Origin: a virus
Lineage: Duplodnaviria > Heunggongvirae > Uroviricota > Caudoviricetes
DNA: 22,032 nucleotides
Virus record (IMG/VR): IMGVR_UViG_2740892235_000005
Direction: 5' to 3' (one strand)
In this document: in pieces, positions 16,277 through 16,618 of the stretch
Layout of the letters: each line of letters starts with the position of its first letter
Position numbering within the stretch: the stretch's first letter is position 1
Translations under genes and position numbers: made by a program
Notes under the pieces: model-generated
Told to the model about the DNA's origin: nothing
The model's database searches: none
Seen by the model: only the letters and a program-made list of their open reading frames with translations

Positions 16277-16618
16277 TCAGGGTGCAGAAGGACTAAAGAT
16301 AAACGTTTTCTTCACGCCTTTACGCGGCCTGTCCTTCTCAAATCGCCATTTTGCCATCGCCTTTACAACCTGCTCATCAAACAGATGGTGCGGCTCTGAA
16401 CGGATAAACTCAATTCGGGTGACAGTACCATCAGCACCAATATCAAACTTCACATCAACCCGTCCCTTTATATAATTTGCTGCTGCATAGGCCGGATATT
16501 GTGGTAATGCCTTAACCAACTGTCGGGGCATATCTGTTTTATGTTGCGTACAGCCCATAACCAGAGAAGACAACAAAATAATTAACGGAAGATTTCTTTT
16601 CATTTTCATTCCCGGCAC
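16277..16618 (-). CDS. secreted lipoprotein with a TonB C-terminal domain
   Basis: 113-aa ORF (likely start at internal ATG 16603, MKRNLPLIILLSSLVMGC). Signal peptide with lipobox-like LVMG|C, then PQYPAYAAANYIKGRVDVKFDIGADGTVTRIEFIRSEP..FDEQVVKAMAKWRFEK, about 40% identical to the recalled E. coli TonB C-terminal domain. Confidence 0.7.
   Translation of the reverse strand: MPGMKMKRNLPLIILLSSLVMGCTQHKTDMPRQLVKALPQYPAYAAANYIKGRVDVKFDIGADGTVTRIEFIRSEPHHLFDEQVVKAMAKWRFEKDRPRKGVKKTFIFSPSAP

Follow-up and report, generated by a model that had tools for sequence, protein, structure and literature searches.

Cor of phages phi80, N15 and HK022 is an outer-membrane lipoprotein that acts on FhuA. C-terminal fragments of TonB, when exported into the periplasm, reportedly inhibit transport through FhuA/FecA and confer protection from phi80 and colicin M (Howard et al. 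2001; Koedding et al. 2004). For Llp of phage T5, a recent preprint describes a phage outer-membrane lipoprotein blocking the TonB-dependent transporter FhuA from the periplasmic side (bioRxiv 10.64898/2026.03.26.714494). In TonB itself, the amphipathic helix 199-216 (with F202 and W213) is reported to be essential and to contact the TonB box of FepA (bioRxiv 10.1101/2021.12.08.471779), and TonB-box mutants of FhuA and colicin M are classically suppressed by Q160L (PMC11658791). Here we analyzed a minus-strand gene of the Caudoviricetes record IMGVR_UViG_2740892235_000005 (the window, meaning the whole stretch of 22,032 nt, to which coordinates refer unless another locus is named). Its product is a genuine member of the TonB_C-domain proteins but no TonB: it consists of a TonB head with a predicted lipid anchor. 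The initial annotation of this DNA had interpreted the product as a decoy for TonB; this interpretation is partly supported by our results, and a decoy is the best mechanism that we can offer. The gene, below called the TonB-head gene, is composed as follows:

16277-16603 (stop codon included), minus strand: coding sequence of a pre-lipoprotein of 108 aa with a single TonB C-terminal domain (from open reading frame, profile and alignment)
16550-16603, minus strand: signal peptide and lipobox, MKRNLPLIILLSSLVMG followed by C18 (read from the sequence; Cys kept in 29/29 family members; the sole hydrophobic segment)
16295-16528, minus strand: TonB C-terminal domain, residues 26-103, aligned with E. 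coli TonB 153-230 (Pfam, phmmer, BLASTP, AlphaFold and Foldseek)

Profile searches placed the product well above the cutoffs of Pfam TonB_C PF03544 (55.9 bits vs 24.6, E = 5.8e-15) and TIGR01352 (56.4 bits vs 27.1), and phmmer matched it to the solved E. coli and Salmonella TonB C-terminal domains with E of about 3-9e-16. BLASTP against TonB 153-230 gave a gapless alignment with 31/78 identical residues, in agreement with the single domain of about 40% identity to E. coli TonB that had been claimed for this product, and the PQYP and VKFD..DG..W..E blocks named in that claim were both found in the lipoprotein. TonB residues retained in the BLASTP alignment include Y163/P164 (Y36/P37 in the lipoprotein), F180 (F53), G186 (G59), F202 (F75), W213 (W86) and F230 (F103), and Y215 is represented by Phe (F88). 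The equivalent of the amphipathic helix 199-216 is conserved as well. An AlphaFold model, for which the 29-sequence family alignment served as input, had a pLDDT >90 over the domain and the helix-strand-strand-helix-strand order of TonB (alpha1 38-42, beta1 47-55, beta2 61-70, alpha2 76-84, beta3 94-103). The top Foldseek matches of this model in the PDB were TonB (1u07), TonB:FhuA (2grx_C, TM-score on target 0.86) and TonB:BtuB (2gsk_B), all with a probability of 1.00 and a TM-score on target of 0.76-0.86. The comparison with TonB C-terminal domains that the initial annotation had suggested as a check was thus significant for both the profile (PF03544, 5.8e-15) and the structure (1.00 to 1u07). 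A Foldseek search of viral structures (BFVD) returned no match at E<=0.001. Homology to Cor or Llp was not found: Pfam at E<=1 gave only TonB_C and TonB_2, and PHROGs gave phrog_1267 and phrog_34172. The protein may nevertheless act in a similar way to Cor and Llp.

The rest of TonB is missing. Against the cutoffs of 265-448 bits for full-length TonB equivalogs (NCBIfam PRK10819 group), the best score was 73 bits. The 108-aa protein has no N-terminal transmembrane anchor, no ExbB/ExbD coupling and no proline-rich spacer, and the alignment spans TonB 153-230 only; the absence of anchor and spacer had been pointed out before, and the length of the protein leaves no room for them, nor is there a second hydrophobic segment. 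The linker from the Cys to the domain has 8 residues. Because the chain stops 5 residues past beta3, there is no beta4 able to cap the beta3 edge.

The open reading frame that had been placed here on the minus strand is present (16277-16618), with two candidate starts, GTG at 16618 (113 aa) and ATG at 16603 (108 aa, MKRNLPL...). The ATG is the PGAP start in an almost identical prophage (WP_000828070.1, 'TonB family protein') and aligns codon for codon with the allele of phage 21, whose ribosome-binding site is annotated. On these grounds we corrected the start from 16618 to ATG 16603, which is probably the true one, the GTG with its five additional residues being less likely.

The N-terminus, MKRNLPLIILLSSLVMG-C18-TQ, has a positive n-region (MKR), a hydrophobic h-region (NLPLIILLSSL) and a lipobox ending in Cys (VMG-C18, within LSSLVMG-C18-T), so the lipoprotein-type signal peptide (LVMG-C18) of the initial annotation was borne out. 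In the family alignment the lipobox Cys is invariant (29/29), with lipobox types LMGC, ISAC, LLGC, LSAC and similar. Only the signal is hydrophobic; elsewhere the maximum Kyte-Doolittle value is 0.53, and the mature protein is basic (pI 9.9). In E. coli, the residue after the Cys governs lipoprotein sorting (the +2 rule). This residue is Thr here and Ser, Thr or Ala in relatives, with no Asp, and under the +2 rule the Thr predicts sorting to the outer membrane.

Without a transmembrane anchor and a link to ExbB/ExbD, such a protein could not transduce energy, and because it is uncoupled from ExbBD it would compete with TonB. We consider it possible, although short of probable, that an uncoupled TonB head at the outer membrane intercepts TonB boxes and thereby protects the cell from phages and colicins. 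The exported product would be lipidated at Cys18 and, as the Thr at +2 predicts, placed in the inner leaflet of the outer membrane, where the 8-residue linker would hold the TonB C-terminal domain at the periplasmic face. The most likely activity of the domain is that of the same fold in TonB (2grx, 2gsk): it may capture TonB-box strands by beta-augmentation on its free beta3 edge. It would act on TonB-dependent transporters or on group B colicins emerging from them. Competition with genuine TonB would damp the entry of T1/phi80-type phages and of colicins B, D, Ia and M, and the cost would be some loss of siderophore and B12 uptake. A decayed Fur box and the late-operon orientation of the gene (see below) may allow expression in the lysogen as well as late in the lytic cycle.

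The gene is widespread and under selection. Among 5426 complete E. coli genomes, 414 have the window allele intact, and a second allele, with 71% protein identity and first seen in phage 21, occurs in 1221 (22%), so that about 30% carry either allele (414 plus 1221 of 5426). In the uropathogen UTI89, the phage 21-type allele lies between iss/bor and the terminase genes. Among sequenced phages, one or the other allele is carried by Stx1a-converting phages, Lys8385Vzw, JLK-2012, phage 21, ev017 and Perceval, and relatives are encoded in 218 IMG/VR stretches. Between the window and phage 21 alleles, the ratio of nonsynonymous to synonymous substitutions (dN/dS) was 0.13 at a dS of about 1.4, with silent sites near saturation, showing that purifying selection acts on the gene and that it is no 'partial tonB' remnant. 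Older phage records do word it as 'Partial tonB-like membrane protein' or 'TonB fragment', and a non-functional leftover of tonB would account for that wording. Such a leftover is, however, at odds with the low dN/dS at nearly saturated silent sites, with a dedicated lipoprotein signal and an invariant Cys, with a family that is monophyletic and distinct from E. coli TonB, and with intact copies in >1600 complete genomes. The dN/dS of 0.13 together with the conserved lipobox refutes this explanation, to which we give almost no credence.

An exhaustive HMMER search and a profile search showed that proteins of this architecture, 104-133 aa long, are numerous in Enterobacterales: they were recovered from Klebsiella, Raoultella, Pantoea, Erwinia, Serratia, Rahnella and related organisms. 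The alignment of 29 members revealed family-specific motifs, YPYYA and S-x-P-x-HLFD...KWRFE. In a neighbor-joining tree, which carries no bootstrap support, the family is monophyletic and stands apart from the E. coli TonB C-terminal domain, and the phage copies form three separate lineages: the E. coli phages; a Klebsiella phage, beside chromosomal copies of Klebsiella and Raoultella; and a Rahnella prophage, nested in Pantoea-type chromosomal copies. The other relatives mostly stand as single genes in ordinary parts of the chromosome that are neither phage nor defence regions, and no transporter, exbBD or bacteriocin gene was found as a conserved neighbour of the chromosomal relatives. The phage gene is one captured from a family of small chromosomal Enterobacterales lipoproteins with Fur boxes. 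This chromosomal family is undescribed, and the prophage protein is annotated only as 'TonB family protein'.

Two chromosomal neighbourhoods showed further genes. At locus L024 (3208-4290, minus strand), a gene with a pore-forming colicin domain (PF01024) and a small open reading frame lie near a chromosomal TonB_C lipoprotein gene. Both sit in a variable island beside a truncated integrase gene, and the linkage is probably incidental because the sister locus L025 is without the island. On the chromosomes of Raoultella and Klebsiella, the TonB_C lipoprotein gene is closely followed downstream by a gene for a DUF1440 membrane protein (loci L004-L006, about 8730-9300). Klebsiella phage ST13-OXA48phi12.4 also has a DUF1440 gene (61% identity; L002, 2286-2912), which lies upstream of the TonB_C gene of this phage at a distance of about 3 kb. 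The two genes may have been captured together.

The leader of the TonB-head gene in the window contains two candidate regulatory features:

16636-16663, minus strand: candidate for a sigma-70-like promoter, with ATGACC and TG-n-TAGAAT spaced by 16 nt, some 33 nt before the ATG (from a consensus scan alone; 9/12 and the TG of an extended -10)
16624-16640: perfect 8-1-8 palindrome, AGAATAAG-a-CTTATTCT, overlapping the -10; a Fur-like 19-mer lies at 16620-16638

The 19-mer agrees with the Fur-box consensus at 13/19 positions and lies exactly at -35, a match to the consensus only. The palindrome is kept in 59 of the 64 viral contigs with enough upstream sequence. In phage 21 the right half of the palindrome/Fur site is deleted, and the Klebsiella phage copy has 12/19 at -34. 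When all 409 kb of fetched DNA were scanned with the 19-bp consensus (background for >=14/19 about 9e-5 per position), matches of at least 15/19 were nearly confined to the leaders of chromosomal TonB_C lipoprotein genes. Most of the chromosomal relatives sampled have a Fur box of 14-17/19 located 28-36 nt upstream of the start codon, with scores of 15-16/19 in Raoultella and Klebsiella, 16/19 in Pantoea and 16/19 in Erwinia; two metagenome-derived chromosomal contigs have boxes of 17/19 and 14/19, and Serratia grimesii has one of 17/19 at -67 from the assigned start. In our reading, the ancestral chromosomal gene would have been Fur-regulated, and the phage copies would keep a decayed operator and have come under phage control, by way of their late-operon orientation or else of a constitutive promoter with an extended -10.

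Other promoter-like or Fur-like matches were also observed. Inside the TonB-head gene there is an antisense sigma-70 near-consensus at 16449-16476 (plus strand; TTCACA, 16 nt, TATAAT; 11/12). The phage 21 allele retains its -10, but this element coincides with conserved ANYIK codons, and coding constraint alone may account for its conservation. A Fur-like site of 16/19, GATAATGGTTATCATTTTA, at 19277-19301 (19-mer 19283-19301) adjoins a GC-rich cos-like sequence (…ACGGGGCGGGCGGCGCGG…), and phage 21 has a 15/19 Fur-like site (L003, 6051-6069) beside its annotated cosQ. These sites near cos are probably packaging-site or IHF-type AT-rich elements unrelated to iron regulation and to the TonB-head gene.

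The Fur boxes bear directly on another explanation, in which the protein is an accessory of TonB-dependent uptake. A head tethered to the outer membrane and co-induced with the transporters would hold loaded receptors or TonB boxes, or recruit periplasmic binding proteins, and in this way would raise iron acquisition, or set its priorities, while TonB is in short supply. In that case the prophage copy would be a moron serving fitness or virulence, not a shield. This would agree with the 14-17/19 Fur boxes of the Raoultella, Klebsiella, Pantoea and Erwinia relatives and the 17/19 box of Serratia, with the chromosomal copies being single genes in non-phage, non-defence contexts, and with the presence of the gene beside iss/bor in pathogenic lineages. 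In its favour, too, TonB-type C-terminal domains can have partners that are not TonB boxes, as FusB, which has such a domain, binds ferredoxin (PMC13253070). Against it, free TonB C-terminal domains are reportedly inhibitory (Howard et al. 2001), no mechanism is known by which an energy-less TonB head would aid transport, little of the Fur box (13/19) or only half of it (phage 21) is left in the copies of E. coli phages, and no conserved linkage to any transporter gene was found. On balance we regard a role in uptake as unlikely, although it deserves serious attention.

The surroundings of the TonB-head gene in the window are as follows:

19961-20494, minus strand: lysozyme
19497-19982, minus strand: Rz (first)
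18536-19084, minus strand: DUF1441 open reading frame
17666-18139, minus strand: second Rz
17707-17913, minus strand: Rz1, a proline-rich lipoprotein, embedded in the second Rz
16940-17485, minus strand: Rha, the gene before the TonB-head gene
16750-16940, minus strand: conserved element, non-coding and about 190 bp long, the usual follower of Rz in these phages and the upstream junction of the moron; second copy at 19310-19500
between the TonB-head gene and HNH: YlcI/DUF3950 gene, convergent
15538-15903, minus strand: HNH, then TerS, TerL, HK97-type head genes and lambda-type tail genes

The TonB-head gene is a phage moron, of deviant GC content, inserted between conserved modules and missing from a similar junction. 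The gene and its leader have a GC content of 40-46%, compared with 55-60% for the terminase and Rz regions on either side, and the gene lies between Rz/Rha on one side and HNH/terminase on the other; the AT-rich upstream region and the cargo position between lysis and packaging modules noted in the initial annotation were thus both confirmed. The gene is recognised as an insertion because the repeated element shows the junction with and without the insert: the copy at 16750-16940 is followed by the leader and the TonB-head gene, and the copy at 19310-19500 by the cos-like sequence. The element also occurs downstream of bor in phage 21 (locus L003, about 4690-4850). The slot from lysis to terminase is common to the TonB-head genes of E. 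coli, Klebsiella and Rahnella phages.

This position has a bearing on the PHROGs assignment. The protein matches phrog_1267 over its full length (E = 2.6e-42), a group labelled 'Rz-like spanin' in the category lysis, and the gene lies just downstream of the lysis cassette in late-gene orientation, as would suit a lysis accessory or spanin-like protein. The prophage, however, already has a complete Rz (17666-18139) with an embedded Rz1 (17707-17913), the protein is a globular TonB fold with no C-terminal transmembrane segment, coiled coil or proline-rich rod, and the genes nearest to it are not phage genes but chromosomal ones that carry Fur boxes. An o-spanin is a short, proline-rich lipoprotein that pairs with an i-spanin, and a u-spanin is a lipoprotein that ends in a transmembrane segment; as the protein has the features of neither, a spanin is rejected on anatomy and largely refuted, and we rate a lysis function as very improbable. 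The phrog_1267 label appears to be an annotation by position, the members examined being TonB-fold, and could mislead automatic phage annotation.

Several observations concern the architecture of the prophage itself. Its late region has two Rz genes (17666-18139 and 19497-19982) with the DUF1441 open reading frame and small open reading frames between them, and the order DUF1441 then Rz is repeated in many related viral contigs. The double Rz region looks like a mosaic junction from recombination between two lambdoid phages, and the closest complete genome (97% coverage) is without about 1.6 kb of it. In NZ_CP027584.1 (locus L031, 1172900-1186000) the prophage end adjoins a truncated ompW and yciE/yciF-trpA, that is, the ompW integration site.

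A second transducer head was found in the same prophage type. The near-identical prophage of strain 00-3076 (NZ_CP027584.1) encodes a 142-aa lipoprotein (LTTG-C) with a TolA C-terminal domain (L001, 27297-27725, minus strand; PF06519, E = 5.7e-23), about 4.4 kb past the right end of the window and downstream of Q and tRNAs. The protein is 53% identical to domain III of an E. coli TolA reference sequence. Of the 5426 E. coli genomes, 885 carry copies of the TolA-domain gene, as does phage mEp460_ev081, typically between Q and holin, and its product belongs to phrog_5772, of unknown function, in PHROGs. Upstream of it the best Fur match was 12/19, which is uninformative. As a supporting parallel, two morons that would each mimic the head of one import-energising system fit the logic of a decoy.

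Genes for outer-membrane proteins also occur in these prophages. A full-length OmpC-like porin gene (Porin_1, 5e-143), another moron of the envelope-remodelling kind, lies at 300-1463 on the minus strand, between the L and M minor tail genes, and the UTI89 prophage has a similar porin after Q. An Ail/Lom-family outer-membrane protein gene follows J in the prophage of NZ_CP027584.1 (L031).

The protein might instead be an envelope tether or surface remodeller, whose domain would bind peptidoglycan or abundant outer-membrane proteins and confer serum or stress resistance in the manner of Bor/Iss or Lom, with no specific action on TonB boxes. Kaserer et al. 2008 reportedly proposed peptidoglycan binding for the TonB C-terminus, which would fit, as would the basic mature protein (pI 9.9), the direct adjacency of the gene to bor/iss in phage 21 and UTI89, and its company of OmpC-like porin, Ail/Lom and TolA-domain lipoprotein. 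A tether would, however, leave unexplained both the Fur boxes of the relatives and the conservation of the functional aromatics and amphipathic helix of TonB, and we consider it distinctly improbable.

Several results weigh against the decoy mechanism, and some of them narrow it. A full-text literature search found no paper, experimental or other, on the function of this protein, and the PADLOC-DB 2.0 defence models gave no match at E<=0.01. In the window, both the promoter and the Fur site (13/19) were called by consensus match alone. The chromosomal relatives sampled mostly have strong Fur boxes and so are apparently made in iron starvation, when a TonB competitor would be costliest. Uropathogens depend on TonB-mediated iron uptake, and the phage 21-type allele, present in 22% of E. 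coli genomes, is carried by the uropathogen UTI89. The Fur-linked relatives and the carriage by UTI89 argue against a strong constitutive inhibitor of TonB, and favour a weak or conditional competitor, a shield timed to receptor de-repression, or a positive or modulatory role in uptake. Three residues by which TonB contacts transporters differ in the lipoprotein (K for R158, L for Q160 and Y for R166), and since these are replaced and the family has its own YPYYA signature, the partner could differ. The Leu aligned with Q160, which matches the Q160L suppressor and would favour a decoy, gets little weight because this position varies across the family. Finally, the C-terminus of the prophage J is 81% identical to lambda-type J variants and 54% identical to J of lambda h434 imm21, which suggests a porin and not a TonB-dependent transporter as the receptor of this phage. 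Protection of its own receptor is unlikely with such a lambda-like J C-terminus, and any exclusion would hit other phages; self-exclusion in the manner of Cor or Llp was for this reason judged unlikely.

The decoy mechanism could be extended, in a version that we hold as doubtful. Lambdoid prophages would supply heads of both transducers, TonB and TolA, tethered to the outer membrane, as broad decoys that catch the TonB-box and TolA-binding epitopes of arriving phages and of group B and group A colicins. The Fur-box chromosomal versions (Klebsiella, Raoultella, Pantoea, Erwinia and Serratia) would form a shield that iron starvation induces and that is raised while TonB-dependent receptors are de-repressed.

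If competition with TonB is true, superinfection exclusion and colicin tolerance would be reached here by a new route, through mimicry of the head of a host energy transducer instead of masking of a single receptor. Siderophore-antibiotic conjugates enter by TonB-dependent transport, and competition would affect their efficacy as well as phage-therapy host range and pathogen iron acquisition. The carriers include Shiga-toxin phage lineages and UTI89, where the gene is beside iss. With its Fur boxes, the chromosomal family suggests that the response to iron starvation has an undescribed component in several genera of Enterobacterales.

Compared with known systems, the prophage protein is most similar to the C-terminal domain of E. 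coli TonB (about 150-239; 1u07, 1xx3, 2grx, 2gsk), with which it shares the fold, 40% identity over 78 residues, the YP motif, the aromatics, the helix and the free beta3. It differs from TonB in its predicted lipid anchor in the opposite (outer) membrane, in the replacement of R158, Q160 and R166, and in ending after beta3. HasB, FusB and TonB2 resemble it as TonB-type C-terminal domains specialised for particular partners, but they keep an inner-membrane anchor and work with ExbBD-type motors, which the prophage protein cannot do. Engineered periplasmic TonB fragments are likewise heads without an energy source, and the experiments reported with them are the precedent for a decoy. The fragments are artificial and soluble and were over-expressed, whereas the phage protein is natural and predicted to be lipid-anchored. 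The TolA-domain lipoprotein shares with it the lipobox, the short linker, the transducer head and the status of a late-region moron widespread in E. coli prophages, and differs in carrying TolA domain III (a related fold), in its position between Q and holin outside the window, and in its pathway, Tol, which serves Tol-dependent colicins and filamentous phages. T5 Llp and the Cor proteins of phi80, N15 and HK022 are, like the predicted product, small phage lipoproteins of the outer-membrane inner leaflet, and they act on FhuA from the periplasm. They block the phage's own receptor, whereas the prophage with the TonB head has a lambda-J-type tail tip; and because the proposed target is the shared TonB box, the effect of the TonB head would be broad and not restricted to one receptor.

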